DNA from: Betaproteobacteria bacterium
GTDB lineage: Bacteria; Pseudomonadota; Gammaproteobacteria; Burkholderiales; Burkholderiaceae_C
DNA length: 64,000 nt
Direction of reading: 5' to 3'
Assembly: GCA_016868355.1 (NCBI GenBank)
Contig: VGHB01000013.1
Coordinates: 5,985 to 69,984 of the forward strand
Position numbers and translations under genes: made by a program. Position 1 is the first letter of the stretch. The number at the start of each line of letters is the position of its first letter. The notes under the pieces were generated by a model. That model was given only the letters and a program-made list of their open reading frames with translations. It did no database searches and was not told the origin of the DNA. Below, one piece after another: positions 987 to 49,062 of the stretch.

Positions 987-1691
987 CTACCCGATCAGCA
1001 TACGCCCCAAGCAAACCAAACCCGCCGGCGCCTCCAGCCAAGCCTCGATCTGAACCGGACCCTCACCCACCGAAATGGCCTGGCCCTTGACCATCCCCAT
1101 ACAAGCCAAGGCCTGCGACAACGGTGTGGCCTGCGGGTGCTGCAAGCGCAGGGCCTGCAAGCGCAGACCCGAGGGCGGCATCTGAGCCACCGGGTGCACC
1201 GCACCCCACTGAATCAAGGTGGGCAGCGCGCCTCCAAACAGGCGATGACCATCGTCGCGAACGGTGATCTGCCACTCCAGCAAGCCTGCTGCGGTCATGC
1301 GCGAAGCACTCAACACAGGCCCGCGCTCGATACCCAGTGGGTACAAAGCGGCGCGCGCAGCTTGCACATCCGAGCTGCGGGCCACCCAATGGCACAGCTG
1401 CGGGCCTTCGTTTGCCAGGCGCTTGATCAGCGCGGGGTCATCCAAGTCAAACCATCGCTGCAAGCCGGGTGCACGTGTGGGCGTGGCACCCGGGTCAACC
1501 GCAATGATTTCCAGGTATGCCCTCTCGAAGCCCGGGCCATCCACCCGCAACAATCGGTTGTGGGTCCCCATCAGCGGGTGTGCCCCACCGGGGCCAGGTG
1601 TCACCCCAAGCACAGACTCACACCACCGCACGCCCTCATCCAAACTCGAAGCCGCCACCACCAGGTGGTCCAACACCGCCGTCAGCGGCAT
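987..1691 (-). CDS. VOC / glyoxalase-like domain protein
   Basis: 234-aa ORF. The N-terminus MPLTAVLDHLVVAASSLDEGVRWCESVLGV.. resembles glyoxalase-like (VOC fold) proteins. It overlaps the stop of the upstream gene by 10 nt (1682-1691), which suggests co-transcription. Confidence 0.55.
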   Translation of the reverse strand: MPLTAVLDHLVVAASSLDEGVRWCESVLGVTPGPGGAHPLMGTHNRLLRVDGPGFERAYLEIIAVDPGATPTRAPGLQRWFDLDDPALIKRLANEGPQLCHWVARSSDVQAARAALYPLGIERGPVLSASRMTAAGLLEWQITVRDDGHRLFGGALPTLIQWGAVHPVAQMPPSGLRLQALRLQHPQATPLSQALACMGMVKGQAISVGEGPVQIEAWLEAPAGLVCLGRMLIG

Positions 1692-4156
1692 GTTCCATCC
1701 CCCTGTTGTTCACCCACCTTCAAGCCCAGGTGGCTGGCCGACACCCGCTCGTTGCCCGGAATATTTCGGTGGATGGGCCGGTTGAGCAGCTCGGCTTGGC
1801 CCTGCTTGCCGCGCAGCACCAGGGCACTCGTGCCTCCGCCATCGAGGTTGATGCCCTCCGTGGCGCCCAATGCCTTGAGCCAGGCGGCCAGGTCATGCAG
1901 CGTGGCGCCCAAGCTGTATTCGAACTGCCGACCGTCCACCACCAGAAGCCACATCCAGCGGCCGTCAGCCGAAACACCCACCGCGGTGCGCGGATGCACC
2001 GAGGGCACCAGCACCCTGGGCGCCACATCGTGCCCCCCGCGCAAGACGATGTCGAATCCCCCGACGGCATTGCGCACACCCGTGGATGGGAAGGGCGGGG
2101 CTTGGATGCGCACCGCTCCGTCGTTCATCATCAACAGGGCCGGGTACTGCTTGCTCGGGCCCGACACCGGTCGTCCCTGGCTCACCTGAAAGCCGGCCAC
2201 TTCCATCAACAGTCCCTCTTGATCGACCACAGGCCCAAACGGTGCGGCATTGATGGCCAGGTGCAGCTGGTGTTCGCGCAGGAAGGTGCTGGTCTTGAGC
2301 CCGATGGTTTCGGGCGTGTGACGGCCGGGCGGCGCCATCGGGGCATCGCCCCATGTGGCCGGCGGTGTGGCCAACCACTGCAGGCAAGGCGTCTGCAGGT
2401 CAATTCGGGCCAGGTGTAAAACAGCTTGGCGCGGCTCCAACACCTGCAGTTCGGCCACGGCCACACCCGCAAAGCGGGGCTTCCAACTGGGGGACAGGAC
2501 CGGCCCAGCTTCAGCACCCAGGGCACCGGGGCGCAAGGTGGCGCGCATCGACTCGCGTCGATCAACCAACAGCTCCACCTCGGCCCAGTCCCCATCCACC
2601 GTCAGGGCCACCGGCCCGCCCTGAAGGTGATGCAGCCCTTGGATGTCCTGCCAGCCGGCGTTGGGCAAGCGGCGGCCCACCACTCGATACTGCCCAGCTG
2701 GCAGATGGTCAGCAGACCACAGCGCTGGTGCTGTAGACCCGTGGGGCTTGGGCGTTGGCGCAGCACGGCGCACCAGGGGCCAAGACCCCGGGCGCCAACC
2801 CACGGCAAAGCGCGGCGAATGGGCAGGCCCACGTTGCCGATACCAGGCCTGCAGTTCCTGCGCATAGAGGTCCAACACGCCACGGCTGAACCACAGTACA
2901 TGGCCCGCCTGCCCAAGGCTGTCGACCAACTCCATCGACCGCCTGAGTTGATCCCACGAAGAGTCAGGACCATCGCCGACGATGCGGATGCCGGCCACCA
3001 GCTCATCGGGCCGATAGGCGCCCCGCGCCTGCACCGCGGTGGTTTGCTCGCGCCAGGTTTTTTCGAACGCCGCGTAGCTCATGCGGTAGGCCTGGGGGAT
3101 GACCTCATCCCAATGCGGCACCACACGCTGGGCGGCTTCCTGGCGCACCGGCAAGCCGCTCAAGCGGTCGGCATCGGACCATGCCGTCCATCGTGGCCAA
3201 TCCAACAAGTAGTTCTCCCAGCTCCAGGGATAAACCGCAGGGCTGAGCGACACCACCAGACCAGGCCGGCGGGCTCTGACCTCTTGAACAAACCAGCGGG
3301 CGTATTCGTCAACCTTGGAGGCTCGCCAGCGCATCCAAGCCGGGTCTCGATGGTCTGCTGGCGGCTGTGCGCCGAGGTGCTCAGCCGCATAAACGCGGCG
3401 TGTGTAATCGTCATAGCCCATCGTCACGTGGGGCCACACGATGCGGTCGTCCAACTGAATGCCGTCGAGGTCATAGCGGTCGATGGCTTCCAGCACCAGG
3501 TCCAGCAACAGCGCTCGCGACTGCGGATGCAAGGGGTTGAGCCAGACGAACCCGTTGGGGGCCACCTCGCGGCCCTGCAGGTCACGGCTAAGCCACTCGG
3601 GTTTGCTCTGGCGCAAGTGGTTCATCGTGGACTGATGCGCGGCCATGAAGCCGTACTCAAACCAGGCTATGGCCAGCAAGCCCTGGCGGTGGGCCTCGGT
3701 TACCGCTTCATGCAACAGGTCTCGAGGTGCTTGTGCGCGGGTGTGCGGGGAATCGGCCGGGTCTTGCTCGCGGCCTGCAGGCCGCTGCGAAACGCCGATG
3801 GCCCGGCGCAGCACCTCCGAAGGGAACTGGGTGTAGCCGTTCTTCCAGGCCTCGATGTAGACGGTGTTCAAGCCAATCTCGCGCAGCCGCTGCATGGTGC
3901 GCGCCGTGTGCTCGGGGCTGGCCAGGGCGTCGTTGGCGGTGGTGGTGAGCCAGGTGCCACGCACTTGTGGGCGGCTGGGTGCTTCGGGCCTTGCAGCCTG
4001 CTGTTCCAGCGTACCTGGCGCTTGCTCTTGGCTCTGCGCAAAGCCCCACCCGCACGCCAACACGCACAGCAGCTTCAAAGCGGCCATTTGGATGCAAAGC
4101 CGACGTCCGGTCTTTGGTCCGCGAAGGCTCGCGCGACGGTTTGAAGGGTTCATCAT
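1682..4156 (-). CDS. Fusion protein: N-terminal GHL10 (glycosyl hydrolase-like 10, DUF187/YngK-type) domain plus C-terminal NAGPA-type phosphodiester glycosidase domain; exported
   Basis: 824-aa ORF. Signal-like MAALKLLCVLACGWGFAQS gives an alternative start near 4087. N-terminal half: RGTWLTT..GLNTVYIEAWKNGYTQFPS..LLAIAWFEYGF..LNPLHP..DLDGIQLDD (GHL10-like). C-terminal 250 aa: HPRTAVGVSADGRWMWLLVVDGRQ..GINLDGGGTSALVL (hallmark of the phosphodiester glycosidase / NAGPA family). Confidence 0.8.
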   Translation of the reverse strand: MMNPSNRRASLRGPKTGRRLCIQMAALKLLCVLACGWGFAQSQEQAPGTLEQQAARPEAPSRPQVRGTWLTTTANDALASPEHTARTMQRLREIGLNTVYIEAWKNGYTQFPSEVLRRAIGVSQRPAGREQDPADSPHTRAQAPRDLLHEAVTEAHRQGLLAIAWFEYGFMAAHQSTMNHLRQSKPEWLSRDLQGREVAPNGFVWLNPLHPQSRALLLDLVLEAIDRYDLDGIQLDDRIVWPHVTMGYDDYTRRVYAAEHLGAQPPADHRDPAWMRWRASKVDEYARWFVQEVRARRPGLVVSLSPAVYPWSWENYLLDWPRWTAWSDADRLSGLPVRQEAAQRVVPHWDEVIPQAYRMSYAAFEKTWREQTTAVQARGAYRPDELVAGIRIVGDGPDSSWDQLRRSMELVDSLGQAGHVLWFSRGVLDLYAQELQAWYRQRGPAHSPRFAVGWRPGSWPLVRRAAPTPKPHGSTAPALWSADHLPAGQYRVVGRRLPNAGWQDIQGLHHLQGGPVALTVDGDWAEVELLVDRRESMRATLRPGALGAEAGPVLSPSWKPRFAGVAVAELQVLEPRQAVLHLARIDLQTPCLQWLATPPATWGDAPMAPPGRHTPETIGLKTSTFLREHQLHLAINAAPFGPVVDQEGLLMEVAGFQVSQGRPVSGPSKQYPALLMMNDGAVRIQAPPFPSTGVRNAVGGFDIVLRGGHDVAPRVLVPSVHPRTAVGVSADGRWMWLLVVDGRQFEYSLGATLHDLAAWLKALGATEGINLDGGGTSALVLRGKQGQAELLNRPIHRNIPGNERVSASHLGLKVGEQQGDGTCR

Positions 4157-4162: not shown

Positions 4163-5020
4163 TCAGCCCTTGCTTTCCTGCTTGGGGTCTAAAGCATCGC
4201 GCAAGCCATCGCCCAACAGATTGAAGGCCAGACTTACCAGCAGAATCGTTGCGCCGGGGGCTGCAGCCACCCACCATTGATCAAGCAGGAACTGCCGCCC
4301 ATTGCTGATCATGGCACCCCACTCAGGAATGGGCGGTTGGGCTCCCAGACCCAAAAAGCCCAAGCCGGCAGCCGTCAGAATGATGCCTGACATGTCCAGG
4401 CTCACCCGCACCACCACCGACGGCAAACACAGAGGCACGATGTGCCGCCACACGATTCGACTGGAACTGGCACCCATGGCTTGCGCGGCCTGCACAAACC
4501 CAGCTTGCCGCAGTGTCAGCGTCTCCGCCCGTGCGATGCGGGCGTATGGCGGCCAGGACGTCACGGCAATGGCCAAGATAGCGTTTTCAATGCCGGGGCC
4601 CAGGGCTGCTACAAAGGCCAAGGCCAGGATCAGCCGCGGGAAGGCCAGAAAGATATCCGTCATGCGCATGAGGATGGTATCCAGCACTTTGGCGCGGCCA
4701 TGGGCACAGTAGCCAGCCACAGTGCCCACCAGCAAGCCGACCGGCGCAGCCAATACGGCCACCAAGACCACCACCAACAGCGTGATGCGGCTACCATGAA
4801 TGAGGCGTGACACGATGTCACGTCCCAGGTCGTCAGTACCCAACCAGTGGTCTGGCCCCGGCGGCAGAAGGCGCCGGTTTTGAAGGTCGCCATCGTAGGC
4901 TGAGTGGGGTGCCAAGACATCGGCGCCCAGGGCCACCACCAGAAACACCATCAAAATGACCAAGCCCAATGCCGACATGGGATTGCGCACCAAGCGATGC
5001 ACAGCAGTACGGATGATCAT
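4163..5020 (-). CDS. Opp/Dpp-type (peptide/nickel family) ABC transporter permease, DppC-like
   Basis: 285 aa, multi-pass hydrophobic protein. The N-terminus RLVRNPMSALGLVILMVFLVVALGADVLAPH is typical of OppC/DppC. 4-nt overlap with the upstream permease gene. Confidence 0.85.
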   Translation of the reverse strand: MIIRTAVHRLVRNPMSALGLVILMVFLVVALGADVLAPHSAYDGDLQNRRLLPPGPDHWLGTDDLGRDIVSRLIHGSRITLLVVVLVAVLAAPVGLLVGTVAGYCAHGRAKVLDTILMRMTDIFLAFPRLILALAFVAALGPGIENAILAIAVTSWPPYARIARAETLTLRQAGFVQAAQAMGASSSRIVWRHIVPLCLPSVVVRVSLDMSGIILTAAGLGFLGLGAQPPIPEWGAMISNGRQFLLDQWWVAAAPGATILLVSLAFNLLGDGLRDALDPKQESKG

Positions 5021-6084
5021 GGGGCTCGGGTACGGGGATCCAACAGCCGGTACAGCACATCACTGAGCAGATTTAATGCAATGAAGACACTGCCCACGAG
5101 CAAGGTGCCACCCAACACTGCATTCATGTCGCCATTCTGGAGTGAATTCGTGATGTACAGCCCCAGCCCTGGCCATGAAAAGACTGTCTCGGTCAAAACG
5201 GACCCCTCCAACAAAGCAGCGTAGGACATGGCCACCACCGTCAGCAAGGGTACAGCTGCATTTCGCAGTGCATGCCACCAAACCACGCGAGATTCAGCGA
5301 GCCCTTTGGCGCGAGCGGTCAGGATGTACTCTTTGCTCAGTTCGTTGAGCATGAATGAGCGTGTCATGCGGCTGATATAGGCCATGGAGTAAAAACCCAA
5401 CAGACCTGCCGGCAAGACCAGGTGGCTAAAGGCATTTCGGAATGCCTCCCATTGCCCAGCCCAAGCGGTATCCAAGAGCAACATCCCGCTCATGCGCGGC
5501 ACGCTGAACTCGTGCGAAACGTCCAGACGTCCGGGCCCGGATACCCATCCCAGCTGCGCATAAAACAGCAGCAAACCCATCAGACCGAGCCAAAAAATGG
5601 GGATCGAGTGACCCACCAGGCCCAGCAGCCGCGCCAGATGGTCCGGCCAGCGGCCGTGGTGAATCGCAGCCCACACGCCCAATGGAACGCCCAACCCCAC
5701 GCCCACGATGATGCCTGCGGTGGCCAACTCAACGGTCGCAGGAAAGGTTGCCAGGAGGTCTTGAAGGACCGGGTTGGAAGTCAGGATGGACGAGCCCAGG
5801 TCCCCCCTGAGCACCTGCGCCACGTATTGACTGAATTGGGTCCAAAGGGGTTGATCCAGTCCCAACTCCTGGCGAACCCGCTGCAGCACATGCTCTGGGG
5901 CGCGGTCTCCGGCCACGGCCAAGGCAGGATCAATGGGAATGACCCGACCGATAAAGAAGGTGGCGCCCAGCAGTCCCAGATAGGTCAAGCACAGCGCCAG
6001 GAGCAGCCCCGTCGCTGAACGCAAAGTTGACCACCAGCCGGTGACCGCTACTGGTTCCGAAGGGCTCTCAGCGCTTGCGGACAT
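5017..6084 (-). CDS. Opp/Dpp-type ABC transporter permease, DppB-like
   Basis: 355 aa. Contains ..IDPALAVAGDRAP..LGLDQPLWTQFSQYV.. and the EAA-like segment EYILTARAKGLAESRVVWWHALRNA, typical of OppB/DppB. Confidence 0.85.
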   Translation of the reverse strand: MSASAESPSEPVAVTGWWSTLRSATGLLLALCLTYLGLLGATFFIGRVIPIDPALAVAGDRAPEHVLQRVRQELGLDQPLWTQFSQYVAQVLRGDLGSSILTSNPVLQDLLATFPATVELATAGIIVGVGLGVPLGVWAAIHHGRWPDHLARLLGLVGHSIPIFWLGLMGLLLFYAQLGWVSGPGRLDVSHEFSVPRMSGMLLLDTAWAGQWEAFRNAFSHLVLPAGLLGFYSMAYISRMTRSFMLNELSKEYILTARAKGLAESRVVWWHALRNAAVPLLTVVAMSYAALLEGSVLTETVFSWPGLGLYITNSLQNGDMNAVLGGTLLVGSVFIALNLLSDVLYRLLDPRTRAP

Positions 6085-7678
6085 TAAACAGGTGTGTGGA
6101 CTCGCTGGTGGGCCCGATCAAAAGGCCCTCCACATGAGCCCTCATTGCAGCGACTTCCACCAATTGAAAGAGGATCGCAAACGGGCTAACCCTCAGAAAG
6201 TCCCCCTGCAGATCTTGGTACAGGCGAGTGCGACGGGACGCATCGCGCTCCATGACAGCCGCTTCCACCCGGCGACTGAATTCGGGGACTTGCCACCCGT
6301 TGCGCCAAGCCAGTGACTTTGTGGCGGCCGCATCCGAGTTGTCGAGGTTACGGGCAAAGGCATCGGCGTTGGTGTGAGGATCCCAGTAGTCCATTCCCCA
6401 TGACCCAAGGTATAGGTCATGCTGCCGCGCACGGTAACGGATGAGGGCCTGTTTTCCATCGCTAGGCATGACCTCAAGTGCAATGCCGACCTGTCGCAGG
6501 CTTTGCTGCAGCGCTTCGGTGATGGCCTGATAGGGTTGCACCGTACGCATGTCGATGGTGAGCTTAAATCCCTGTGAAAGGCCTGCTTGAGCCAACAAGG
6601 CGCGCGCCTTGGCCACGTCTAAACGATACGGCCTTTGCGCAGAAGATCCCAGCACACCAGCGGGCAAAAAGGTCTGGTGCACCTCAGCAATATTTCGCAC
6701 CAGTGTTTGCCCAATCACGTCGTAATCAATCAACCACTTCAGAGCCTCACGCACCTCAGCTTTGGCCAGGTTCGGGTTCCTTTGGTTCATCGCCAAATAC
6801 ATCAACTCACCCCGCCGCGCTGAAGCCAGCTTGAGCTCAGGGTTGGTTCTGACCGCATCGAGATCCTGGGGGCTGAGGTTACGCGCGACGTCGATGTCAC
6901 CTTTTTGCAGCAGGAGGCGCTGGGTGGTGGACTCCTTTACATGGCGCACGATCACACGCGCCAACGGAGCCTTGCTGCTGTGATGGTTGTCGTTACGCTC
7001 AAGAGCCACCAATTCGTTGGCACGCCACTGCAAGATTTTCAACGGTCCCGACCCCGCATAGTGTGTACGCAGCCATCCGTGCCCCAGGTCAGCATTGGAC
7101 TCCTTGCTCAGCAACAAACGGCGGTCAACCACAGAAGCCACATTGGCCGTTAGGCAGTTGTAGACCAGGCTGGGCGCCAAGTCGCGGTCAATCTCGATGC
7201 TCAGGCTCAGGGGGCCCGTTTGCAAGACTCGCTGTCGCACACTGTCTTTCTTCAAGCCCAGTTGAGCCAGGATGAAAGCAGGGGACTTATCCAACAGCAC
7301 AGCCCGGTGCAGCGAGAACACAACGTCTTCAGCGTCCAGTGGATTGCCCGAAGCAAAACGCAGCTGGGGCTTCAAATCGAATCGAAAGATGCGCCCTTCA
7401 GTTGAAACAGACCAACTGCGCGCAAGGTCACCCACCAGATTCGCCGGATTGGACGGGTCCACACGCAACAGTCGGTCGTATGTGTTGCCCATGATTTCGC
7501 CAGTAGAGATCTCGAAACTCTCCGCCGGATCCAAGGTGATCATGTCATCCAGCGCCTGGGCCAGCACCAGCGTGTCCTTGGGCGTGGCAGCCCAGGCATC
7601 TGAGGCCCCCACACCGGCCCAGGCTATACCCATGCTCAACAGTTCTCGGCGGTTCAGGGGGCTGTAAAACGGGCTCAT
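6068..7678 (-). CDS. ABC transporter substrate-binding protein, family 5 (peptide/oligosaccharide type), Tat signal
   Basis: The ORF track gives 6068..7744 from a TTG. The ATG at 7678 yields MSPFYSPLNRRELLSMGIAWAGVGASDAWA (Tat-like signal), followed by DTLVLAQALDDMITLDPAESFE, typical of SBP_bac_5. Confidence 0.8.
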   Translation of the reverse strand: MSPFYSPLNRRELLSMGIAWAGVGASDAWAATPKDTLVLAQALDDMITLDPAESFEISTGEIMGNTYDRLLRVDPSNPANLVGDLARSWSVSTEGRIFRFDLKPQLRFASGNPLDAEDVVFSLHRAVLLDKSPAFILAQLGLKKDSVRQRVLQTGPLSLSIEIDRDLAPSLVYNCLTANVASVVDRRLLLSKESNADLGHGWLRTHYAGSGPLKILQWRANELVALERNDNHHSSKAPLARVIVRHVKESTTQRLLLQKGDIDVARNLSPQDLDAVRTNPELKLASARRGELMYLAMNQRNPNLAKAEVREALKWLIDYDVIGQTLVRNIAEVHQTFLPAGVLGSSAQRPYRLDVAKARALLAQAGLSQGFKLTIDMRTVQPYQAITEALQQSLRQVGIALEVMPSDGKQALIRYRARQHDLYLGSWGMDYWDPHTNADAFARNLDNSDAAATKSLAWRNGWQVPEFSRRVEAAVMERDASRRTRLYQDLQGDFLRVSPFAILFQLVEVAAMRAHVEGLLIGPTSESTHLFNVRKR

Positions 7679-7724
7679 AGAGGATGATTTGAAAGAGAGC
7701 TGCGCCAGCCCGGGTAGTGCAAGC

Positions 7725-8660
7725 TTAGCGCGGGATTTCCGCAAAGTCTGCGGCTCGAATAGCCGCGCACCGATGGGCGGCCAGGTTCAAACGCGAGACG
7801 GCAATACCAGCAGGCAGGCTTGCCGCCAAGGACGACTGCAGCAGGGGGTGGAGTTCGAAGGCGCCGCCGGCCAGCCACACGGGACGGGGACCGAACTGCC
7901 GAAACAACAGAGTGGCCAAGCGCCCCAGCTCTAAGCCAGCACTCTGAAGGATTCCCCAGGCCAACGTGTCTTGATCGGCTACGGCCGCCACGGCCAGCGC
8001 CAAGCGTCCCACGTCACCCCGCGAGGCCAGATGCATAAAGCGCCGGGTATCTTCCCAGCGTGAGCCGCCAACAGCCTGGAACAAGGCCTGGGCCAAAAGG
8101 GACCCCTGGCAAAAGCCCGGGTCTTCATCCTCTGCGCGCCAAATCGCCTTGAGGGCCTGACAGGCAATCCAGTAGCCACTGCCATCATCGCCCAAGGTCT
8201 CACCGCGGCCCCCAACCCGATACAGCCGGTCTTGTTCATCCAAGTAGGTGGCGATGCACCCGGTACCGGCGTACACCAAATAGCCGCTGCCCTTTGCAAG
8301 GCTTACCCGGTGGGCCAACTCCACATCGTTGTAGAGCCGCAGAGCACCCGGGGCCAGGGCCAGGCAATGCTCCATGTGGGCCTGCAATGGCTCGCCGGCA
8401 TGCCCATCAAAGCCGGTGACGCCAGCCCAAGCCAAAACCGTTGCAGCCCCCCCAGCCACTGCCGCCGGCGCATGCGAGGCCTTGACCACTTCGCGCAGCG
8501 CCGACAAGGCTTGGGCAATGTGGTCCCGCCCGGCTTCGGTGTGAACCTGCTGCCCACTGAAACTGGGCGCTATGCCCTCTTGCATGACCTGCCCCCGGGC
8601 ATCGGCCAATGCCCAGCGGCACTGCGTACCGCCGACATCCAGGCCCAAGCCGAGGTGCAA
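7725..8660 (-). CDS. BadF/BadG/BcrA/BcrD-type ATPase; predicted N-acetyl-hexosamine (GlcNAc/MurNAc/ManNAc) kinase, paralog 1
   Basis: 311 aa. (TTG)HLGLGLDVGGTQCRWALAD phosphate-1 motif; GYLVYAGTGCIA; GGRGETLGDDGSGYWIA. Clear paralog of the 31543..32484 gene. Confidence 0.75.
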   Translation of the reverse strand: MHLGLGLDVGGTQCRWALADARGQVMQEGIAPSFSGQQVHTEAGRDHIAQALSALREVVKASHAPAAVAGGAATVLAWAGVTGFDGHAGEPLQAHMEHCLALAPGALRLYNDVELAHRVSLAKGSGYLVYAGTGCIATYLDEQDRLYRVGGRGETLGDDGSGYWIACQALKAIWRAEDEDPGFCQGSLLAQALFQAVGGSRWEDTRRFMHLASRGDVGRLALAVAAVADQDTLAWGILQSAGLELGRLATLLFRQFGPRPVWLAGGAFELHPLLQSSLAASLPAGIAVSRLNLAAHRCAAIRAADFAEIPR

Positions 8661-8679: not shown

Positions 8680-11505
8680 TTACAGTTTGGCGCGCAAAGC
8701 TAGGAAATACTGTCTTCCGTTTTGATGCCAATAACCGGGCGCGTTCACATTCAGATAGTAGGTGTGACGAATCGGATCGTTGAGGTTGTTGCCATCAAAG
8801 TGCAGGCTGATGTCCTTGGTGATGCGATAACCCAGCGACATCGACAGGCTGCCGGCACCCGCATAGCGGTGCTGGCCGTTGTACTGCGTGATCACGCCAG
8901 CGGCATTGACCAGGGGCGTGAGCGTGCCATTTCCGACAAAGCCGATGGCGTAGTCGGAGCGATAGTTCCAAGCCAGACTGGCTGTGAGCTTGCTGTCTTC
9001 GTAGAAGCCCCGCATGTTGTAGGTGCGGGTTGAGGTACCCAGCAGCGGTGCACCATCGGCGTCTTTCGAGTCCACATAGGTGCCGTTCACCCCCAAGCCG
9101 AAGCCGCCACCAAAAGGCAGTTCCATGGCGGCTTCAGCCCCCTTGAGCTTGCCGGAAACCCCGATGCGAGAGCTCACCAGATAGGTCGTTACTTTGTTCT
9201 GCGCAATATTGAAGTAATCGATTGACGAGGTACCCGTCTTGACATAATTCTCCAGGCTTTGCGTGAACACCCCGGCAGACACATAGGCACGCGGGGCAAA
9301 GTAACGGGCCCAAGACAGGTCGACGTTATTGGACAGGATGGGCTTGAGGTTGGGGTTGCCGCTGGACCCGGTCAACAGAGTGTCGTTCAGGCTGACCGCA
9401 CCGGCGAGCTCGTTGTAATTGGGGCGGCCCAGACTGCGCGAGATGCCCACCCGAATATCATTCTGCCGATCAAGCTTCCACCGCAGGTTGAAACTGGGGA
9501 GCACGGCGTTGTTTTCAGTGGTGTTCAGGCGAGGCAGGTACGTGGCAATGCGCGAACCCACGATGGCACCGGGCACCGCACAGGGTTTCAAGACGGCGCA
9601 CTGCCCCAAGGCTTGGTACGACAAAGAATCAACTTCTGTCTTGGCCAAGCGAACCCCAAAATTGCCGCTCTTGCTGGCGTCAAGCTCAAACTCGCCCATT
9701 GCGTAGGTGGCCGTGTTCTGTTCCTTGATCTTGTAGCCACTAGTCAGTACGTCGTTCAGGCCCGGGGTCCAGTTGATGTACTTGTCGGTAAAGGCCTTCA
9801 TCTGTGCCATGTCATAGCGGAAGATGTCGCGCGGGAAGTTTCCGCTAGCCCCGTTAAACCAATTGGCCGGGTAGGACGTAGCGGGCACCGGCACGGCCGA
9901 TGCGGGCACCACGGTGGACTTGACCACCGAGCCACCGGTGATCAGGGTGAAGGGAAAGTCAGGCGATGACGAGGGAATCGGGCCTGCTGCATTGTCCTGA
10001 GCATTCCAGCGCGGGTTGACTACCGCGTAGCTGCGGTCGTGCGTCGAGCGGCGCGCACCGAACTTGATGTTGGTGAGGAAGCCAGTGGCCATCTTGTAGT
10101 CGCCATCCAAGTGGAAGTAGGACTCTTTGTCCAGGGCCTTCACTGCTGCGCCCTGGTTGCTCAGCAGTGAAAAGTTGGCGACGTTTCGCAGGTTTATGGG
10201 TTTGCCATCGGCGCCATTGATGGTGTACTGCGCCGGAGCATCAGGCGTCTGACTGAACTTGACGGTGGATGGACTGACCAGGCCATAGACCAAGCTGGGC
10301 TGCGACGCTGTGGTCCCACTGCCTTCTGTGTAGCCGGCGCGGCCCCGAATGCTGAAGGCCGAAGTCAGGTTGTACTTGGCGTCCAAGTCCCAGAATGAGC
10401 TCGTGGACTGGGCCCCCTGACGGTTGAAGTGGTCGAACTGCAGACCCACCACATTGGAAGTGGCACCGGTGGGGCGGGTGATGGTGGCCGAGGTCACCAC
10501 ATCACCGGTGATGACAGGGTCCCGAATCAGGTAGCTCGCATTGTTGACCAAGCCGTATGGCAAGGCATAGGCTGAGCTGTTGTAGTTGTCAGCGTTGAGT
10601 TCAGCGCGGAACAAAGAGGCGTTGACCTCGAGGGCTTTGCTGGGTTTGAACTGCAAGCCCAAGTAGCCACCGCTGCGCTGACGCACGCCTTCGAACATAG
10701 CCGAGTTCAAGCTGCCGGTCATGCGCTTGCCGGCCAAGTCGGGGTTACCGGAAGCTGTGGCCTGCGCCACAGTAATCACGTTGTAGCCAAAAATCTCTTG
10801 GCCATCGCGCCGCAGGTGACGATTTTCCTTGAAGACCTGCACCAGCAAGCCCATGGTGTTGTCGCCGTTCTTCCAGTTGATCAGGCCACTGACCTGCGGG
10901 TCGGTCTTGTTGGCTAAGGCGGCATGCACCATGCCCAAAGAGACTTCTCCACTGAGCGCTTGCCGGAAGCTCAGTGGCTTGCGCATGATGATATCCACGC
11001 TGCCGGAAATACCGCCTTCGGTAATGTCTGCACGGCTGCTCTTGTAGACGATGGTCTGACCGATGATCTGGGAAGGCATGAGACCGAAGCCCACGCTGCG
11101 GCCGCTACCGGCCTGATCGCCGACGTGCCAGTCACCCGAACTCAGCGCATGCCCGTTGACCGTCACGAGGTTGAGGTTGGGACTGGTGCCACGAATGGCC
11201 ACTCGCTCAGCTTCATCCATGGCCAATGCACCACCGTACTGCACGTTAACCCCGGGAAGGCGCGACAGCGCATCGGCAATGTTCTTGTCAGGCATCTTGC
11301 CGATGTCTTCGGCCGTGATGACATCCACATTGGTATCAGCGGCTCGTTTGGTGACCAGCGACTGTTCGATGGAGGCCCGGATCCCGGAGACTTCAACCCG
11401 TTGGGGCGCGTCCTTGGGTGCGGCCTGCTGGGCTTGCGCACCGGCAGCCAGGCTGAACAGCAGCGTTGATACCGCAACGGCGATGGGCTCTTGGCGGAAT
11501 TTCAT
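8680..11505 (-). CDS. TonB-dependent receptor (carbohydrate-scavenging type)
   Basis: The ATG at 11505 is preceded by GGAGA 8 nt upstream. Signal MKFRQEPIAVAVSTLLFSLAAGAQA. Plug region VEVSGIRASIEQSLVTKRAADTNVDVITAEDIGKMPDKNIADALSRLPGVNV. C-terminal ..QYFLALRAKL beta-barrel end. Confidence 0.9.
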   Translation of the reverse strand: MKFRQEPIAVAVSTLLFSLAAGAQAQQAAPKDAPQRVEVSGIRASIEQSLVTKRAADTNVDVITAEDIGKMPDKNIADALSRLPGVNVQYGGALAMDEAERVAIRGTSPNLNLVTVNGHALSSGDWHVGDQAGSGRSVGFGLMPSQIIGQTIVYKSSRADITEGGISGSVDIIMRKPLSFRQALSGEVSLGMVHAALANKTDPQVSGLINWKNGDNTMGLLVQVFKENRHLRRDGQEIFGYNVITVAQATASGNPDLAGKRMTGSLNSAMFEGVRQRSGGYLGLQFKPSKALEVNASLFRAELNADNYNSSAYALPYGLVNNASYLIRDPVITGDVVTSATITRPTGATSNVVGLQFDHFNRQGAQSTSSFWDLDAKYNLTSAFSIRGRAGYTEGSGTTASQPSLVYGLVSPSTVKFSQTPDAPAQYTINGADGKPINLRNVANFSLLSNQGAAVKALDKESYFHLDGDYKMATGFLTNIKFGARRSTHDRSYAVVNPRWNAQDNAAGPIPSSSPDFPFTLITGGSVVKSTVVPASAVPVPATSYPANWFNGASGNFPRDIFRYDMAQMKAFTDKYINWTPGLNDVLTSGYKIKEQNTATYAMGEFELDASKSGNFGVRLAKTEVDSLSYQALGQCAVLKPCAVPGAIVGSRIATYLPRLNTTENNAVLPSFNLRWKLDRQNDIRVGISRSLGRPNYNELAGAVSLNDTLLTGSSGNPNLKPILSNNVDLSWARYFAPRAYVSAGVFTQSLENYVKTGTSSIDYFNIAQNKVTTYLVSSRIGVSGKLKGAEAAMELPFGGGFGLGVNGTYVDSKDADGAPLLGTSTRTYNMRGFYEDSKLTASLAWNYRSDYAIGFVGNGTLTPLVNAAGVITQYNGQHRYAGAGSLSMSLGYRITKDISLHFDGNNLNDPIRHTYYLNVNAPGYWHQNGRQYFLALRAKL

Positions 11506-11563
11506 CAGAGTGTCTCCAGTCACTAGACCTATGGCCCAGTATAGAGAGGGCCATTCGATCGAT

Positions 11564-11588: not shown

Positions 11589-12311
11589 CTAGCCTGTGAC
11601 CCGGCCTGCGCGGGTGTCCTCCAAACCCGCGGCAAACCAGGAGGTCATGACTTCCAACCGGGTCAGCGCAGTACCCACGGTTACCGACCAGGCCCCTGCC
11701 TGCAGGGCGCAGGCAGCCCGATCAGGGGTGTCATACCGGCCCTCTGCCATGACCCGGCAGCCCGCGCGCGCCAAATCGGCGACCAGAGCCAGGTCGGGCT
11801 CTGCCGGCATGGGGCCAGTGATGTAGCCCGACAACGTGGTGCCGATGATGTCAAAGCCCATTTGCCAAGCCTGCAGGCCGTCCTCCAAACAAGAGGCGTC
11901 GGCCATGGCCAGACAACCCTGCTCATGAACGGCCTGCAGCAGTTCGACCAATTGGCAGGGACGGCTGCGCTGGGTAGCGTCCACGGCGATTACGTCGGCA
12001 CCGGATGCGGCCAAGGACAGCACATCTTGGCGCAGCGGTGTAATGCGCACTGGCCAGTCGGGAAGGTCGCGCTTGACGATGCCAATGATGGGCACCTGCG
12101 TTGAGGCACGCACCCGTGCCAGACGCCGAACTCCTTCCACCCGCAACGCGCGCGCGCCGCCAACCACGGCCGCCTGAGCCATGCGCACGACCACATCGTC
12201 ATGATCCAGAGGGCCGCCGTCCACCGGCTGACAAGAAACCACCAATCCGCCCCGCAAGCGGTCGTGCAACAGCGGCATGTTCCAACGCGTCGATTGGGGC
12301 TGTGCTGCCAT
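11589..12311 (-). CDS. nanE: N-acetylmannosamine-6-phosphate 2-epimerase
   Basis: 240 aa. The motifs GGLVVSCQPVDGGPL .. ALRVEG .. VPIIGIVKRDLPDWPVRITP match the NanE signature blocks (VSCQ, IGIVKRD). Confidence 0.85.
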   Translation of the reverse strand: MAAQPQSTRWNMPLLHDRLRGGLVVSCQPVDGGPLDHDDVVVRMAQAAVVGGARALRVEGVRRLARVRASTQVPIIGIVKRDLPDWPVRITPLRQDVLSLAASGADVIAVDATQRSRPCQLVELLQAVHEQGCLAMADASCLEDGLQAWQMGFDIIGTTLSGYITGPMPAEPDLALVADLARAGCRVMAEGRYDTPDRAACALQAGAWSVTVGTALTRLEVMTSWFAAGLEDTRAGRVTG

Positions 12312-13096
12312 CAGGACAGGGCCTCCAATTCAGCCGGGGGGCGACCCACATTCACCTCGAAGCGGTAACGATCGGCCCGGTAGATGGTCTTGCCATACTC
12401 AAAGGCTTGGCCGAGAGTCGAAAACACCTGACGCTCCACCATCAGCGCTGGGCTGAATGGTGCCACGTCCAGCAAGAGCGCCTCATCCTCTGACAAGACC
12501 GTGGCCTGGATCTCCTGTGCGGCATTACGGGGTACCACGCCGTAATCCCGACGCAGCACTTCGTAAAGCGACTCCACTGCAAAACACTCCACGTCAAAGC
12601 CCGGCAGCATCTGAAGGCACAGGTAGGTCTCCTCCAGGGCCATCGGCTCGCCGCTGGCCAGTCGCAGGCGGCGCAACTCTAGCACCCGGCTACCCGGGAC
12701 CAATTTCAGGTTGCGGGCTACCCGCGCGTCTGCTCGCGTGGCGCGCGACGATAGGATTTCGCTGGAGGGCACCAAACCACGCGCGGCCATGTCCTCTGAA
12801 AAGGATCGCAGCAACAGGGGCTTGAGCCAGCTTTGTCCCGAGACAAAAGTGCCCGCACCCTGTCGCCGCTCCAGCACCCCGTCTTGCTGAAGATCGCGCA
12901 GGGCACGGCGCAGCGTCTCTCGCGCCACGCCCATGCGCGCGGCCAACTCCCGTTCGGGCGGTAAACGCATCCCCTCACCCGCTTGCTGCAAGATAGCCTT
13001 CAGGCCCCGCTTGAGTTCTTCGCGCCGCTGCGCCCGGTACATGTCGATTCGCTTCCCTGCGGCCAAGCCGCCGTGTTGCAGGAACAGGTCAATCAT
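12311..13096 (-). CDS. GntR/HutC-family transcriptional regulator with UTRA effector domain (NagR/DasR-like)
   Basis: 261 aa. Winged-helix LPPERELAARMGVARETLRRALRDLQQDGVLERRQGAGTFV followed by a UTRA-like C-terminus. Its stop shares one base with the nanE ATG. Confidence 0.85.
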   Translation of the reverse strand: MIDLFLQHGGLAAGKRIDMYRAQRREELKRGLKAILQQAGEGMRLPPERELAARMGVARETLRRALRDLQQDGVLERRQGAGTFVSGQSWLKPLLLRSFSEDMAARGLVPSSEILSSRATRADARVARNLKLVPGSRVLELRRLRLASGEPMALEETYLCLQMLPGFDVECFAVESLYEVLRRDYGVVPRNAAQEIQATVLSEDEALLLDVAPFSPALMVERQVFSTLGQAFEYGKTIYRADRYRFEVNVGRPPAELEALS

Positions 13097-15351: not shown

Positions 15352-16205
15352 GACAGCCGCACTTGCCCCGATCAATCGCCTGGAGACGCCGCCAGGATGC
15401 AGCCCTTCGATATGCCGCACTGGTGATGGCCACGGCCATCACGGTGGGTCCGTTCCTGTGGCTGTTGAGTACCTCTTTGAAAGGACCGGGTGAGGTGCTG
15501 CAAGGCAGCGGCATGAGCCTGTGGCCGCAAAGCCCAACCCTGGAGAACTATCGGCAGGTTTGGGCTTCACAGCCGATGCTGCGCTATCTAATGAACAGCA
15601 TGACCGTATCCCTACTGGCCGTGGGATGCAACCTGTTGCTGTGCAGCTTGGCTGCCTACCCGCTGGCGCGGATGAAGTTCGCCGGCCGCAGCTGGATATT
15701 CATCGGTCTATTGGCCACGATGATGATGCCGTTTCAGTTGCTGATGATTCCCTTGTACGACTTGGCGATGTCGCTTGGGCTACACAACAGTACCTTGGGG
15801 CTTGTCCTGCCGCATGCCTGCACAGCTTTTGGCATCTTTTATCTCCGCCAAGCTTTCCTGGCTGTACCCCAGGCGCTGGAGGACGTTGCGCTGATGGAAG
15901 GCGTGGGGCGGCTGCAACTGTGGTGGCATGTCATGTTGCCGCTGGTGCGACCCTCACTAGCCACGCTGGCCGTATTTAGCTTTGTGGCCGTATGGGGCGA
16001 CTTTTTGTGGCCCCTGATTCTCTTGGACGACCCGCAGCACTACACCCTGCCGCTGGGTGTCAATCGCCTTGTTAACGCATTTTCGCTGGACTGGCGGTGG
16101 GTCGCCGCCGGGGCGGTGCTGTCGCTCATCCCCATTCTTATGGTCTTCGTTTTCAGCCAGCGCTTCTTCATCGAGGGAGCGTTGAAGGGGGCCATCAAGG
16201 CATGA
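15348..16205 (+). CDS. Sugar ABC transporter permease (MalG/UgpE-like)
   Basis: 285 aa. EAA loop LEDVALMEGVGRLQLWWHVMLPLVRP. ATGA overlap with the preceding gene. Confidence 0.85.
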   Translation: MRQPHLPRSIAWRRRQDAALRYAALVMATAITVGPFLWLLSTSLKGPGEVLQGSGMSLWPQSPTLENYRQVWASQPMLRYLMNSMTVSLLAVGCNLLLCSLAAYPLARMKFAGRSWIFIGLLATMMMPFQLLMIPLYDLAMSLGLHNSTLGLVLPHACTAFGIFYLRQAFLAVPQALEDVALMEGVGRLQLWWHVMLPLVRPSLATLAVFSFVAVWGDFLWPLILLDDPQHYTLPLGVNRLVNAFSLDWRWVAAGAVLSLIPILMVFVFSQRFFIEGALKGAIKA

Positions 16206-18892: not shown

Positions 18893-20373
18893 AGCGCTCC
18901 CTGGCAGCCATCCCGGTGGATGCAAGACCCGTGGTGCGCAGCCAAGTTCAAGACATGGTGAGGTGCTGCGGATGGGAGCTTCGAATGCCGCCCAGGTCAA
19001 TCCTGGGTCACCTCCGAAACCCCGGTGATCGGGATGCTTTGCAAAGTTGGCTCCTGGACCAAGCCCCTGAAGTCGATGGTTTCGTTATATCGCTGGATAT
19101 GTTGGTCTATGGTGGCTTGGTACCCTCTCGCGTCGTAGAGGATGACAGCCAGGACCTGCTGTCTCGGCTGGAACTGCTGCGCATGCTGCGCCGGCTCGTA
19201 CCAAAGAGGCCTGTCTTCGCCTTTGCTGCCACGATGCGTATTTCCAACAGTGCGGTGGCTGAAGAGGAAAAAGACTACTGGGCTGAATATGGGCCACTGC
19301 TGTGGGCGTGGTCATACCACCAAGACCGCGCGCAACAGATTGCCGACCGGCAAGAAGCAGCGCGCAGCCACGCCGAATTCTTGCATCTGGAAACGGCTAT
19401 ACCGGCAGGCATACGCCAGGACTACCGGCACACCCGACAGCGCAACCTTCAGGTGACCCTGCAGGCGCTGCAGGCCGTACGCGAAGGAATCGTCGACCGC
19501 TTGGTCCTGCCGCAGGACGACACTGCTGAGTTCGGACTGAACGTGGCTGAGCGTCGCGTTCTTCAGGCCCAGGTCCAGACTCTTGCGCTGCAAGATCGGG
19601 TCCCGATCTACGCAGGCGCTGATGAGGTCATGCACACACTGTGCGCAAGGATGATCACTGAGTTAGAGGCTCGCCCGGCCTTGCGTATTTCGCTGTTGCC
19701 CAGCGATCCGGTGGGTCTGTCTGGCCTGAAAGCACGGTATGAAGACCGGCCCGTGTTGGACTCCATAGCGGCCCAGATTGCTGCGGTGGGCGCTGTTGCA
19801 GTGAGCCACGCGGCACAGGCCGATGTGGTGCTGGCCCTGCACACCCGAGGCAAGGAACAGGGCGATTGGGCTATGGGCATCAAGCTGCCAGAGCCTACGA
19901 TCATCTCTGAGCACTGGATCCAAACACTGCAACACCTGCACAAGCGCAATAAACCCTGGGCGTTGGCCGACTTGGCCTACGCCAACGGTGGAGACCCCGA
20001 GTGGCTGCTGCACGGTGTTCCCGTGCCGGACGCCTACGCGGGTTGGAATACCGCCAGCAACACCCTGGGCAGCGTCCTATCCCAGTGCGCATTGGGCGTC
20101 GGACATCTGCAGGAGGCGCCCTCGCGACGCGCCCTCAGCCTGCGCCTGCTTGAAGACATGCTCTACCAAGCCCAGGTGCGGCAAGCCGTGCGCGAGACGG
20201 TAGACGAGTCAGTGTGCACGCCTCTGGCTCTGCTGCAAACCGCCCGAGCGTTGATGGTGCCGGCCTCCCGGTCTTTCGCACAGGCTTACGGCTTGAGCCA
20301 TTGCGTGTCAGATCTAAGCCTGCCATGGGACCGCAGCTTTGAGGTCGATTTGCAACTGGAGGCCTTTGCATGA
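18889..20373 (+). CDS. DUF4127-family protein (function unknown)
   Basis: 494 aa. The GTG start overlaps the GH38 stop (GTGA). The N-terminus (M)KRSLAAIPVDARPVV .. DGFVISLDMLVYGGLVPSRV matches my memory of the DUF4127 N-terminal pattern (LPLDERP .. GGL..SR). The assignment is from recall only. Confidence 0.55.
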   Translation: MKRSLAAIPVDARPVVRSQVQDMVRCCGWELRMPPRSILGHLRNPGDRDALQSWLLDQAPEVDGFVISLDMLVYGGLVPSRVVEDDSQDLLSRLELLRMLRRLVPKRPVFAFAATMRISNSAVAEEEKDYWAEYGPLLWAWSYHQDRAQQIADRQEAARSHAEFLHLETAIPAGIRQDYRHTRQRNLQVTLQALQAVREGIVDRLVLPQDDTAEFGLNVAERRVLQAQVQTLALQDRVPIYAGADEVMHTLCARMITELEARPALRISLLPSDPVGLSGLKARYEDRPVLDSIAAQIAAVGAVAVSHAAQADVVLALHTRGKEQGDWAMGIKLPEPTIISEHWIQTLQHLHKRNKPWALADLAYANGGDPEWLLHGVPVPDAYAGWNTASNTLGSVLSQCALGVGHLQEAPSRRALSLRLLEDMLYQAQVRQAVRETVDESVCTPLALLQTARALMVPASRSFAQAYGLSHCVSDLSLPWDRSFEVDLQLEAFA

Positions 20374-41929: not shown

Positions 41930-41948
41930 GATCGGTTGAGCCGCCAAG

Positions 41949-42902: not shown

Positions 42903-42917
42903 TCACCGCCTGCAGCC

Positions 42918-43577
42918 ATGACCCCACACCCGAGCGCTTCTGGACCCGCCCGCGAGCCTGAGCCGGTGGCACCCACGCTGACCTGCGAAACCATAGGGCG
43001 GCACGCCGACTTTGTGCACCTGTCCACCGTCCCCGGCATTGCTGTGGACATCCGCTACGCCAGCGAGTCCAACTTTGCCGGGCGCAGTCTGTACAAGGGA
43101 CTGGACTGCGCTTGGCTGCGCCGGCCGGCCGCGCAGGGTCTGGCCCGCGCGGCGCAGTGGTTGGCTGCGCAGCGCCCGGGCTACGCGCTGCGGGTGCTGG
43201 ATGCCCTGCGCCCGCAGCGTGTGCAGGAAGCCATTTGGCAAGAGGTGCGCGGCACGCCGATGGCCGCCTACTTTGCCGAGCCTGTGCGCGGCTCGATCCA
43301 CTCATTCGGCATGGCGGTCGACGTGACGCTGTTGAATCCGCAAGGCCTGGAGTGCGATATGGGCAGCCGGTACGACGAAATGAACCGACTCTCTCACCCC
43401 AACCTGGAAGCGCAGCACCTGGCCCTCGGGCACTTGGAGGCCCAGCACTTGGTGGACCGGGGCTGGCTGTATGCGGCCATGGCCCAGGGTGGTTTTGTGG
43501 GCATTTCCACCGAGTGGTGGCACTTCGATCATGGCGATCGCGAACAAGTACGACGGGAGATGCAACGTGTGTGGTGA
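42918..43577 (+). CDS. ddpX: D-alanyl-D-alanine dipeptidase (VanX/DdpX, peptidase M15D), cytoplasmic
   Basis: 219 aa. IAVDIRYASESNFAGRSLY, VLDALRPQRVQ, SIHSFGMAVDVTL and EWWHFD are VanX-family zinc-site blocks. No signal peptide. Confidence 0.8.
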   Translation: MTPHPSASGPAREPEPVAPTLTCETIGRHADFVHLSTVPGIAVDIRYASESNFAGRSLYKGLDCAWLRRPAAQGLARAAQWLAAQRPGYALRVLDALRPQRVQEAIWQEVRGTPMAAYFAEPVRGSIHSFGMAVDVTLLNPQGLECDMGSRYDEMNRLSHPNLEAQHLALGHLEAQHLVDRGWLYAAMAQGGFVGISTEWWHFDHGDREQVRREMQRVW

Positions 43578-44655: not shown

Positions 44656-44737
44656 ACGCCGCACGGGCCAAGCCGCGCCGGGCCTTCAACTCAACTACAT
44701 CGGGCTTGGGGCTCAGGGCCCAAGGCTCAGCCCTGAA

Positions 44738-49057: not shown

Positions 49058-49062
49058 GGACC

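Follow-up and report, generated by a model that had tools for sequence, protein, structure and literature searches.

The window analysed here is a 64,000-nucleotide stretch of contig VGHB01000013.1 from a Betaproteobacteria bacterium (assembly GCA_016868355.1, contig positions 5,985 to 69,984). On its minus strand it encodes a protein of 824 amino acids in which a glycosyl-hydrolase-like family 10 (GHL10) barrel is joined to a phosphodiester-glycosidase domain of the NAGPA/DUF2233 family. The protein is tentatively regarded, with a little less than even confidence, as an exported, probably periplasmic two-step glycan-processing enzyme in a TonB-dependent scavenging locus for amino-sugar polymers from the walls of other microbes. 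Both domain families are already known, and the two-domain combination is present, unstudied, in databases. What is new is a separate GHL10 subfamily (here termed GHL10n), the coupling of the two domains across phyla through several independent fusions and through gene adjacency, and a type of NAGPA that is embedded in peptidoglycan and amino-sugar catabolism.

Domains and catalytic signatures of the fusion protein

The fusion gene and the elements recognised in it are listed below. The two halves were modelled separately (AF2; residues 1-545 and 546-824) from alignments of 107 and 116 homologues. In what follows, L numbers denote the loci or contigs compared and P numbers the proteins compared.

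1682-4156, minus: GHL10::NAGPA fusion open reading frame (ORF), 824 amino acids (ORF list, translation, Pfam, 12 fused homologue clusters)
4037-4156, minus: residues 1-40, putative export signal (sequence reading and AF2 model)
2822-3973, minus: residues ~62-445, TIM barrel of the divergent GHL10 subfamily GHL10n (Pfam, AF2, Foldseek, 107 homologues)
3446-3451, minus: D236-D237 pair after strand β4 (HMMER alignment to Cwp19, invariant columns)
2561-2779, minus: residues ~460-532, C-terminal β-sandwich of the GHL10n module (DSSP strands 462-531 in the model)
2486-2560, minus: residues ~533-557, fusion linker (comparison with P0014 and P0123)
1712-2485, minus: residues ~558-815, phosphodiester-glycosidase domain of NAGPA/DUF2233 fold (Pfam, AF2, Foldseek, profile matches to PDB)
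1829-1843, minus: D772-G-G-G-T776 loop (sequence and conservation)

The first-pass annotation of this DNA had described a single exported 824-residue ORF with a GHL10 and a NAGPA domain, and this description holds. The ORF starts with ATG and has no internal stops, the peptides YIEAWKNGYTQFPS, DLDGIQLDD and GINLDGGGTSALVL are all found in its translation, and both domains are recognised by Pfam (see below). No NCBIfam model names the 824-residue protein in a profile search. Its N-terminus (MMNPSNRRASLRGPKTGRRLCIQMAALKLLCVLACGWGFAQSQ) has a basic n-region with two RR pairs followed by a hydrophobic core, and the AF2 model shows a lone helix at residues 19-35, with low pLDDT up to residue ~55. 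Two cleavage sites are possible, a lipobox-like VLAC (C35) or a signal-peptidase site between GFA and QS. The protein is thus predicted from its N-terminal sequence to be exported, by a Sec, twin-arginine translocation (Tat) or lipoprotein route. Twin-arginine-like motifs stand ahead of the hydrophobic core in the window protein (GRRLCIQ), P0011 (SRRFLLL) and P0034 (PRRLLLA), and export of the folded fusion protein via Tat is possible.

The GHL10 model PF02638 matches residues 65-330 (E 2e-48; 165.5 bits vs a cut-off of 27.9; model positions 2-254 of 311). In the model of residues 1-545 (mean pLDDT 89.9, barrel mostly >90), a (β/α)8 barrel at ~62-445 is followed by a β-sandwich at ~460-532. 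Stand-alone GHL10n homologues also have this β-sandwich, and they cover the query to about residue 540. The best Foldseek matches to this half are structures of Clostridioides difficile Cwp19 (5oq3/5oq2; E 7e-17, TM 0.72 on target), a member of the same Pfam family and the only PDB match of the GHL10n subfamily profile. The second-best are the C-terminal GH153 domains of PgaB/BpsB, which hydrolyse de-N-acetylated poly-N-acetylglucosamine (E 7e-12 to 1e-10; TM ~0.68 on target); profile search detects no sequence similarity between PgaB/BpsB and GHL10n. The PgaB substrate is an N-acetylhexosamine (HexNAc) polymer, but PgaB belongs to a biosynthesis and export machine, whereas the window protein belongs to an uptake operon.

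Conservation within GHL10n was taken from 107 homologues with 53-70% identity. D236-D237 is invariant and is paired by the HMMER alignment with D195-D196 of Cwp19, and the role of D196 has been discussed (PMC5765458). The putative active-site set of Cwp19 comprises W36, Q77, W127, R132, D195/D196, Y197, S250, Q295, Y297, G328, and F367-S368 (PMC5765458). The HMMER alignment extends only to about residue 307. Within it, W165 and D236/D237 are retained, S305 falls in an SPA motif, and three Cwp19 positions are swapped for subfamily-invariant residues (Q77 to E102, R132 to F170, Y197 to R238). Beyond the alignment, the pairs W36/W69, Q295/Q355, Y297/Y357, G328/G389, and F367-S368/F423-S424 come from motif inspection only. 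Cwp19 and the window barrel have in common the Asp-Asp pair after β4, the SPA motif and a QxY motif, at ~17% identity. Cwp19 bears CWB2 repeats and acts as a surface autolysin in a Gram-positive bacterium, cutting the bond between N-acetylmuramic acid (MurNAc) and N-acetylglucosamine (GlcNAc) in the peptidoglycan of the producer's own wall (PMC6016235), whereas the window protein has an additional C-terminal β-sandwich, a NAGPA domain and a catabolic operon setting. DigH (YddW), which localises to the divisome, degrades denuded glycans (PMC12288456). With Cwp19 and DigH, GHL10 has characterised members, and the earlier statement that GHL10 has no defined substrate is outdated.

Escherichia coli DigH and the fusion protein share the GHL10 family and export, and homologues of the fusion are often auto-annotated as "lipoprotein YddW". 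Orthology of the fused GHL10 to DigH was considered and rejected: pairwise identity is 23% over 287 residues (E 7e-11), DigH scores 453 bits on the Pfam GHL10 model as against 165 bits for the fusion protein, and another window gene is DigH-like. This paralogue (47426-49057), next to murQ, has canonical motifs and 30% identity to DigH (E 1e-54). The fused barrel belongs instead to a distinct, uncharacterised GHL10 subfamily paralogous to DigH. Since peptidoglycan glycans are already served by the DigH-like enzyme of the window, the target of the fused barrel is most likely a different one. DogH has been reported as a starch-to-maltose GHL10 enzyme (PMC9967864); its link to GHL10n is remote, and it was not used here.

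The NAGPA model PF09992 matches residues 632-810 (E 1.7e-25; 90.6 bits vs a cut-off of 25; model positions 4-166 of 169). The model of residues 546-824 has a mean pLDDT of 94.3, and all 15 of its Foldseek matches at E <= 0.001 are NAGPA/DUF2233 structures (3ohg, 6u11, 6pku, 6pky, 6pki, 6pkg, 5h3k, 6ozd), so that the C-terminal region has the NAGPA fold. The result that the first-pass annotation had named as refuting its view, a C-terminus of some other fold, was thus not obtained. TM is 0.70 for 3ohg (E 7e-16) and 0.68 for vertebrate (guinea-pig or frog) NAGPA (6pku/6u11). The closest solved bacterial relatives, BACOVA_00430 (DUF2233, 3ohg; 23% identity) and BPSS2145 (6ozd), are structural-genomics targets without an established physiological substrate, and both occur without a fused GHL10 domain. 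The NAGPA/DUF2233 family has many bacterial members, with 1327 matches to the window domain at E <= 0.001; among these 1327 homologues of the C-terminal half, the best 120 are without exception stand-alone NAGPA proteins, 237-352 residues long.

According to a 2026 structure paper, the DGGGS loop of NAGPA is invariant from bacteria to man, makes contacts with GlcNAc as well as with phosphate, and contains D286 as the catalytic residue (PMC13474241). The D772-GGG-T776 loop of the window protein matches it, with D772 as the counterpart of human D286. Among 117 NAGPA homologues, the Asp and the three Gly are invariant and the Thr is >90% conserved (D227, G228-230 and T231 in the alignment); the Ser-to-Thr exchange is conservative, yet it departs from a "strictly invariant" DGGGS. 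The HPRT, DGRQ and NRP motifs and R804 are also invariant in this set. R804 lies 32 residues past D772, and the human phosphate-binding R316 lies 30 past D286, which is a comparison of spacing only. The DGRQ motif (741-744) sits in the DGQT region, and human T260 is among the phosphate-binding residues. The vertebrate "uncovering enzyme" has the same fold (TM ~0.68) and shares the RTA...DG and NLDGGG[ST] core, including the catalytic Asp (PMC13474241), but identity is ~20%, and the window domain is without the EGF (epidermal growth factor) or stalk region and without the propeptide.

A NAGPA-fold domain that does not cleave phosphodiesters would be either an ordinary exo-α-N-acetylhexosaminidase or a sugar-binding module that feeds the GHL10 barrel. 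The low identity to vertebrate NAGPA, the HMMER alignments that span only ~65 residues around the RTA...DGGG core, the DGGGT motif in place of DGGGS, and a linkage to PhoX, a pointer to phosphate chemistry, that is not conserved (see below) would all suit such a domain, and no bacterial family member with shown activity was found in the literature searched. It is nevertheless improbable, given that the catalytic Asp, the phosphate-contacting Gly-rich loop and, spaced as expected, an invariant Arg are kept across 117 homologues, and that the compact, high-confidence model comprises the whole NAGPA fold and not a reduced binding module.

Origin of the fusion and recurrence of the GHL10-NAGPA pair

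In a word-indexed search, both domains are present in the 12 closest 90%-identity clusters (72-99% identity; NCBI, JGI, ENA, and Logan), and the other 108 matches listed are proteins of 468-581 residues with GHL10 only. When 1.84 billion 50%-identity representatives were searched exhaustively with phmmer, a single one matched the query over its entire length. In the searches run, the close form of the fusion (72-99% identity) is confined to one small clade of freshwater Betaproteobacteria.

The relative L005 has a 530-residue GHL10 gene and a 324-residue NAGPA gene that overlap by 7 nt and whose products share 74% and 76% identity with the corresponding halves of the query. The L005 NAGPA protein carries its own signal peptide, and in the fusion a linker of ~25 residues stands in place of the GHL10 stop codon and the NAGPA signal peptide. 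The bounds of the linker are given by P0014 (GHL10), which ends ...DRREDMRSVPACRLEGRC, and by P0123, whose mature part, after its own signal peptide, starts ...PWPEPQWHSRFPGV. As the linker replaces a signal peptide and a stop that are seen in a relative with overlapping genes, the fusion is a recent in-frame joining of adjacent genes for two exported proteins, not an assembly error. A small error could merge two genes that overlap by 7 nt as in L005, and the single ORF might then be an artefact of frameshift or mis-assembly. This is highly improbable: the junction is no simple frameshift, since the part coding for the NAGPA signal peptide is absent and the linker is there instead, and the fused ORF occurs in the 12 clusters from four data sources and on three independent MAG (metagenome-assembled genome) contigs (L010-L012).

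Within the same clade, L013 (1466-5050) has the GHL10 gene alone (82% identity); PhoX comes directly after it, and neither a NAGPA gene nor a NAGPA domain is present. The NAGPA part has therefore been gained or lost within this clade.

The first-pass annotation had proposed a survey of how often GHL10 and NAGPA domains are fused or adjacent. A scan of one genome per species, with ORFs called and labelled by BLASTP against the window proteins, yielded 80 GHL10n loci, which are divided as follows:

GHL10 and NAGPA fused: 3 of 80 loci
NAGPA gene immediately downstream on the same strand: 20 of 80 loci
NAGPA gene within 10 kb: 5 of 80 loci
contig ends too soon to tell: 9 of 80 loci
no NAGPA gene seen: 43 of 80 loci

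NAGPA is thus fused, adjacent or nearby in 28 of the 71 assessable species-level loci. Among the 20 loci with an adjacent gene are those of Rubrivivax, Casimicrobium and other Burkholderiales, as well as twelve from Planctomycetota/Phycisphaerales. In Chitinimonas, the two domains are encoded by separate genes of one operon (GntR-NanE-TBDR-TBDR-GHL10-DUF5009-epimerase-PfkB-NAGPA, where TBDR is a TonB-dependent receptor). P0456 is a fusion in the same order as that of the window with GHL10n-type motifs, and its GHL10 part is ~30% identical to the query (BLASTP).

In the Planctomycetota, the downstream gene itself encodes a fusion, in which NAGPA is followed by a second GHL10, of a third type, and a dockerin. 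These proteins, annotated as "phosphodiester glycosidase family protein", carry both Pfam domains on a single exported polypeptide, and their gene lies directly downstream of a GHL10n orthologue (50-65% identity) in GlcNAc-catabolic surroundings. They differ from the window protein in the reversed domain order, in a third GHL10 subfamily (22% identity) and in the added dockerin. The NAGPA-GHL10-dockerin architecture occurs in 97 of 120 clusters among the matches listed, and it is an independent fusion event. Taken together, the sequence comparisons indicate that the GHL10-NAGPA pairing is not due to chance, that the domains are functionally coupled, being fused or adjacent in both Burkholderiales and Planctomycetota, and that NAGPA has recurrently become fused or adjacent to three different GHL10 subfamilies.

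Examples of the Planctomycetota fusion are L080 11383-13854, L065 11641-14220 and L067 11219-13705, which encode proteins of 810-870 residues with an N-terminal NAGPA domain, a divergent GHL10 barrel and a type I dockerin. A type I dockerin is unusual here, outside the cellulosome-forming Firmicutes, and some relatives add EF-hand domains. Beside the GHL10/NAGPA pair of Phycisphaerales (L080 6653-8782, L065 6422-8677), a domain of the glucosamine-6-phosphate isomerase/deaminase family is fused to a PIG-L-type de-N-acetylase, giving a single protein that may perform both NagB-like and NagA-like steps.

Cell-wall and amino-sugar context and a proposed function

The genes around the fusion gene in the window are as follows:

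1-906, minus: 5' part of a PhoX alkaline phosphatase gene that runs off the window (Pfam PhoX, E 1.4e-47)
987-1691, minus: Glyoxalase_3 (VOC superfamily) gene (Pfam, E 1.3e-37)
4163-5020, minus: OppC-like ATP-binding cassette (ABC) permease (Pfam BPD_transp_1, OppC_N)
5017-6084, minus: OppB-like ABC permease (Pfam)
6068-7744, minus: family-5 periplasmic solute-binding protein (Pfam SBP_bac_5, E 7.9e-69; no NCBIfam model reaches its cut-off)
7725-8660, minus: BadF/BcrA-type sugar kinase of the GlcNAc/N-acetylmannosamine (ManNAc)/MurNAc kinase class (Pfam BcrAD_BadFG; weak NagK_SO3507 match)
8680-11523, minus: TonB-dependent receptor of the carbohydrate-type TonB-Xanth-Caul subfamily (TIGR01782, 517.9 bits vs a cut-off of 310)
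11589-12311, minus: NanE, ManNAc-6-phosphate 2-epimerase (Pfam NanE, E 8e-76; NCBIfam PRK01130, 283.6 bits vs a cut-off of 189)
12311-13096, minus: GntR/UTRA regulator of the HutC/NagR class, heading the string (Pfam GntR, UTRA)

From the GntR/UTRA gene to the Glyoxalase_3 gene, all genes are co-directional and overlap or are separated by gaps of <=65 nt. The first-pass annotation had nanE heading this string and the fusion gene ending it; nanE does belong to the same tight string but is preceded by the regulator gene, and the fusion gene is the third-last. PhoX had been placed immediately downstream of the fusion gene, where the Glyoxalase_3 gene in fact intervenes: its ATG overlaps the fusion ORF stop by 10 nt, and the PhoX fragment begins 80 nt further on. 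PhoX and Glyoxalase_3 lie near GHL10n in only two of the 80 species-level loci, both from close relatives, so that the argument drawn from PhoX is weak. Adjacency to PhoX is limited to the window and its close relatives L003, L012 and L013; PhoX was accordingly rejected as a functional partner, and it is doubtful that it belongs to the system.

The link to the cell wall, which had been suggested from the sequence alone, is strengthened by two sets of genes. The first is the operon of P0466 (L090 8371-10188), a fusion of an LD-carboxypeptidase (Peptidase_S66) with a NAGPA domain that is 45% identical to that of the window. This operon also encodes an enzyme of the MR_MLE family (which includes L-Ala-D/L-Glu epimerases), an S11 DD-carboxypeptidase with PG_binding_1, and an M19 dipeptidase; downstream of the P0466 gene follow a DigH-like GHL10 gene and an AmpG-like gene of the major facilitator superfamily (MFS). 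By its gene content, the P0466 operon ties the window type of NAGPA directly to peptidoglycan breakdown. The second set lies in the window itself (39059-51364), as a second, separate cell-wall scavenging cluster in which a LysR regulator is also present:

39059-41929: TonB-dependent receptor
43471-44655: LD-carboxypeptidase (LdcA)
44738-46699: PBP4-like S13 peptidase
47426-49057: DigH-like GHL10 lipoprotein with lipobox
49063-49959: MurQ-type etherase, directly after the DigH-like gene
50024-51364: D-amino-acid oxidase

In other genera, the neighbours of GHL10n include NanE or AGE-family epimerases, ROK/PfkB/BadF kinases, NagX/DUF5009, NagA, NagB-II, and TonB-dependent receptors, and at least one such amino-sugar gene is found in 35 of the 80 GHL10n loci even at strict thresholds. 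A NanE or GlcNAc-2-epimerase-family gene accompanies GHL10n in Chitinimonas, Massilia, Rubrivivax, and Pseudoduganella. NagX/DUF5009 membrane proteins of N-acetyltransferase type in sister loci suggest that the substrates are partly de-N-acetylated. Related loci come mostly from lakes and rivers, and one is from a cyanobacterial culture.

This layout also bears on whether the protein is a housekeeping remodeller of its own envelope, acting on septal glycans like DigH or on the cell's own exopolysaccharide like PgaB. The characterised GHL10 enzymes DigH and Cwp19, and PgaB as the nearest fold, do all act on polymers of the producer (PMC12288456, PMC6016235), and NAGPA-family proteins are sometimes annotated as "exopolysaccharide biosynthesis protein". 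Such a role is quite unlikely, however, since the tight co-directional string of GntR/UTRA regulator, TonB-dependent receptor, binding-protein transporter, sugar kinase and NanE has the layout of uptake and catabolism, which recurs in distant genera. No glycosyltransferase or polymer-export genes lie nearby, and the window has its separate DigH-like paralogue.

For the scavenging enzyme proposed at the outset, we infer the following course, including where the protein resides, which step comes first, which bonds the two domains cut and what the natural substrate is. Wall fragments would enter via the TonB-dependent receptor. The GHL10n barrel would cut a HexNAc glycosidic bond of a secondary wall polymer, candidates being the ManNAc-GlcNAc linkage unit of teichoic acids and secondary cell-wall polysaccharides or a polysaccharide of glucosamine (GlcN), mannosamine (ManN) and mannose (Man) on cyanobacterial peptidoglycan. 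The NAGPA domain would then hydrolyse the remaining HexNAc-α-1-phosphate diester at the sugar side (C1), in an "uncovering" step that would release the sugar and leave a phosphomonoester such as MurNAc-6-P. After import of the released ManNAc and GlcNAc, the BadF-type kinase would phosphorylate them, NanE would carry out the epimerisation, and NagA and NagB-II would take over the products. Polymers attached to MurNAc-O6 via GlcNAc-1-P are plausible substrates. A polysaccharide of GlcN, ManN, galactosamine, Man, and glucose is covalently bound to cyanobacterial peptidoglycan (PMC4488944), and as a substrate it would also explain the presence of NanE, of the GH38 gene, and of the NagX of N-acetyltransferase type.

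Several points weigh against this proposal. Vertebrate NAGPA takes a terminal, unsubstituted GlcNAc, whereas the GlcNAc of the wall linkage is substituted, so that prior trimming must be assumed. The human residues that read the N-acetyl group, E226 and T227, could not be mapped onto the window domain, given the short span of the vertebrate alignments. Motifs conserved in Cwp19 and DigH are altered in GHL10n (VQVRP to YIEAW, with E102; WFNPYR to WFEYGF, with E167; DDY to DDR), and these differences at conserved active-site positions, together with the low identity to DigH, mean that activity on peptidoglycan glycans cannot simply be carried over to the fused GHL10. With 43 of the 71 assessable GHL10n loci showing no nearby NAGPA gene, NAGPA is an accessory and not an obligate partner. 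The closest stand-alone NAGPA homologues are also found in unrelated contexts (L006, L008). No bacterial NAGPA-family enzyme with a demonstrated substrate was found in the literature searched, where a search for a characterised bacterial NAGPA enzyme or a GHL10-NAGPA system returned nothing beyond mentions of the domains. Phosphodiester attachment of the cyanobacterial polysaccharide was reportedly described by Jurgens and Weckesser in 1986; a literature search for this linkage found nothing usable.

The same two-step mechanism might instead act on a substrate that is not anchored to peptidoglycan, namely a phosphoglycan, capsule, exopolysaccharide, or eukaryotic phosphomannan or N-glycan with sugar-1-phosphate caps, from algae, fungi or other bacteria. 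The genes for GH38 α-mannosidase-like, AGE-family and PfkB proteins in the divergent operon (see below) and in sister loci could point to such a mannose-containing, non-wall substrate, as they would fit a route from mannose to fructose to fructose-6-P. The Planctomycetota versions have the dockerin and GFO/IDH/MocA and xylose-isomerase-like neighbours typical of polysaccharide degraders, and a FAD_oxidored (PF12831) gene with no known peptidoglycan-catabolic role recurs with the pair in three lineages. The sole biochemically defined NAGPA substrate is GlcNAc-P-Man on N-glycans (PMC13474241). Such a substrate is nonetheless unlikely: the fusion of LdcA with NAGPA stands in an operon specific to peptidoglycan catabolism, muropeptide and MurNAc genes dominate the surroundings in the window, and the breakdown of mannan or N-glycans leaves NanE unexplained.

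A broader form of the cell-wall proposal is that the GHL10-NAGPA pair constitutes a widespread, previously unrecognised catabolic "uncovering" system that detaches peptidoglycan-anchored polymers, among them teichoic acids, secondary cell-wall polysaccharides and the polysaccharide of cyanobacterial peptidoglycan, by a sugar-side cut of the sugar-1-phosphate-MurNAc linkage. This generalisation is doubtful at present, if distinctly conceivable. To our knowledge, no enzyme cleaves the phosphodiester between a secondary wall polymer and MurNAc from the sugar side. If the broader proposal were true, it would give the bacterial DUF2233/NAGPA family its first physiological substrate and the GHL10 subfamily a new class of substrate. 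It would also provide a route for the recycling of bacterial necromass by freshwater Burkholderiales and Phycisphaerales, identify a step by which cell-wall necromass is turned over in lakes, and supply enzymes for releasing wall polymers intact. The pairing with GHL10, the locus for GlcNAc/ManNAc uptake and catabolism, and the LD-carboxypeptidase::NAGPA fusion turn a vague annotation into a testable biochemical hypothesis.

Other features of the operon and the window

The Glyoxalase_3 gene is translationally coupled to the fusion gene; it has the same position in L010 and L012 and in no more distant locus. In a scan of the operon for terminators and promoters, counts equalled the shuffle expectation, and the sole sigma-70-like match in the region (13120-13092) lies just upstream of the GntR/UTRA gene. 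The transporter of family-5 solute-binding protein, OppB and OppC (4163-7744) is without adjoining OppD/F ATPase genes, as it is in L003 and L012. Nearby, an ABC ATPase is encoded only at 22007-23095; it is of MalK type and part of the divergent operon, which comprises an SBP1 ABC system (with a family-1 solute-binding protein), a GH38 protein, DUF4127, a PF12831 flavoprotein, the MalK-type ATPase, and NagB-II. Further on in the window are NagX, NagA, an AmpD-like amidase, and a second BadF kinase.

The GH38-like protein, DUF4127 and the PF12831 oxidoreductase, which depends on flavin adenine dinucleotide (window 16097-21956), accompany GHL10n in Burkholderiales (L026, L033, L035, L061, and L077). 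The PF12831 gene and an SBP1 ABC system are also near the Phycisphaerales GHL10 gene, in L062 and L067 (NAGPA present) and in L071 (no NAGPA detected), and the PF12831 gene adjoins the distant fusion P0456 as well (L091). None of these three proteins has a known role in amino-sugar or peptidoglycan catabolism.

Positions 30095-34969 of the window encode an AmpG-like MFS protein, NagX, a BadF kinase, and a protein of the beta-lactamase family. In L027, L028 and L084, NagX and the kinase of the matching cluster are separated by a DigH-like GHL10 gene. The DigH-like GHL10 gene thus stands in differing clusters of relatives, which indicates that this paralogue moves between amino-sugar clusters.

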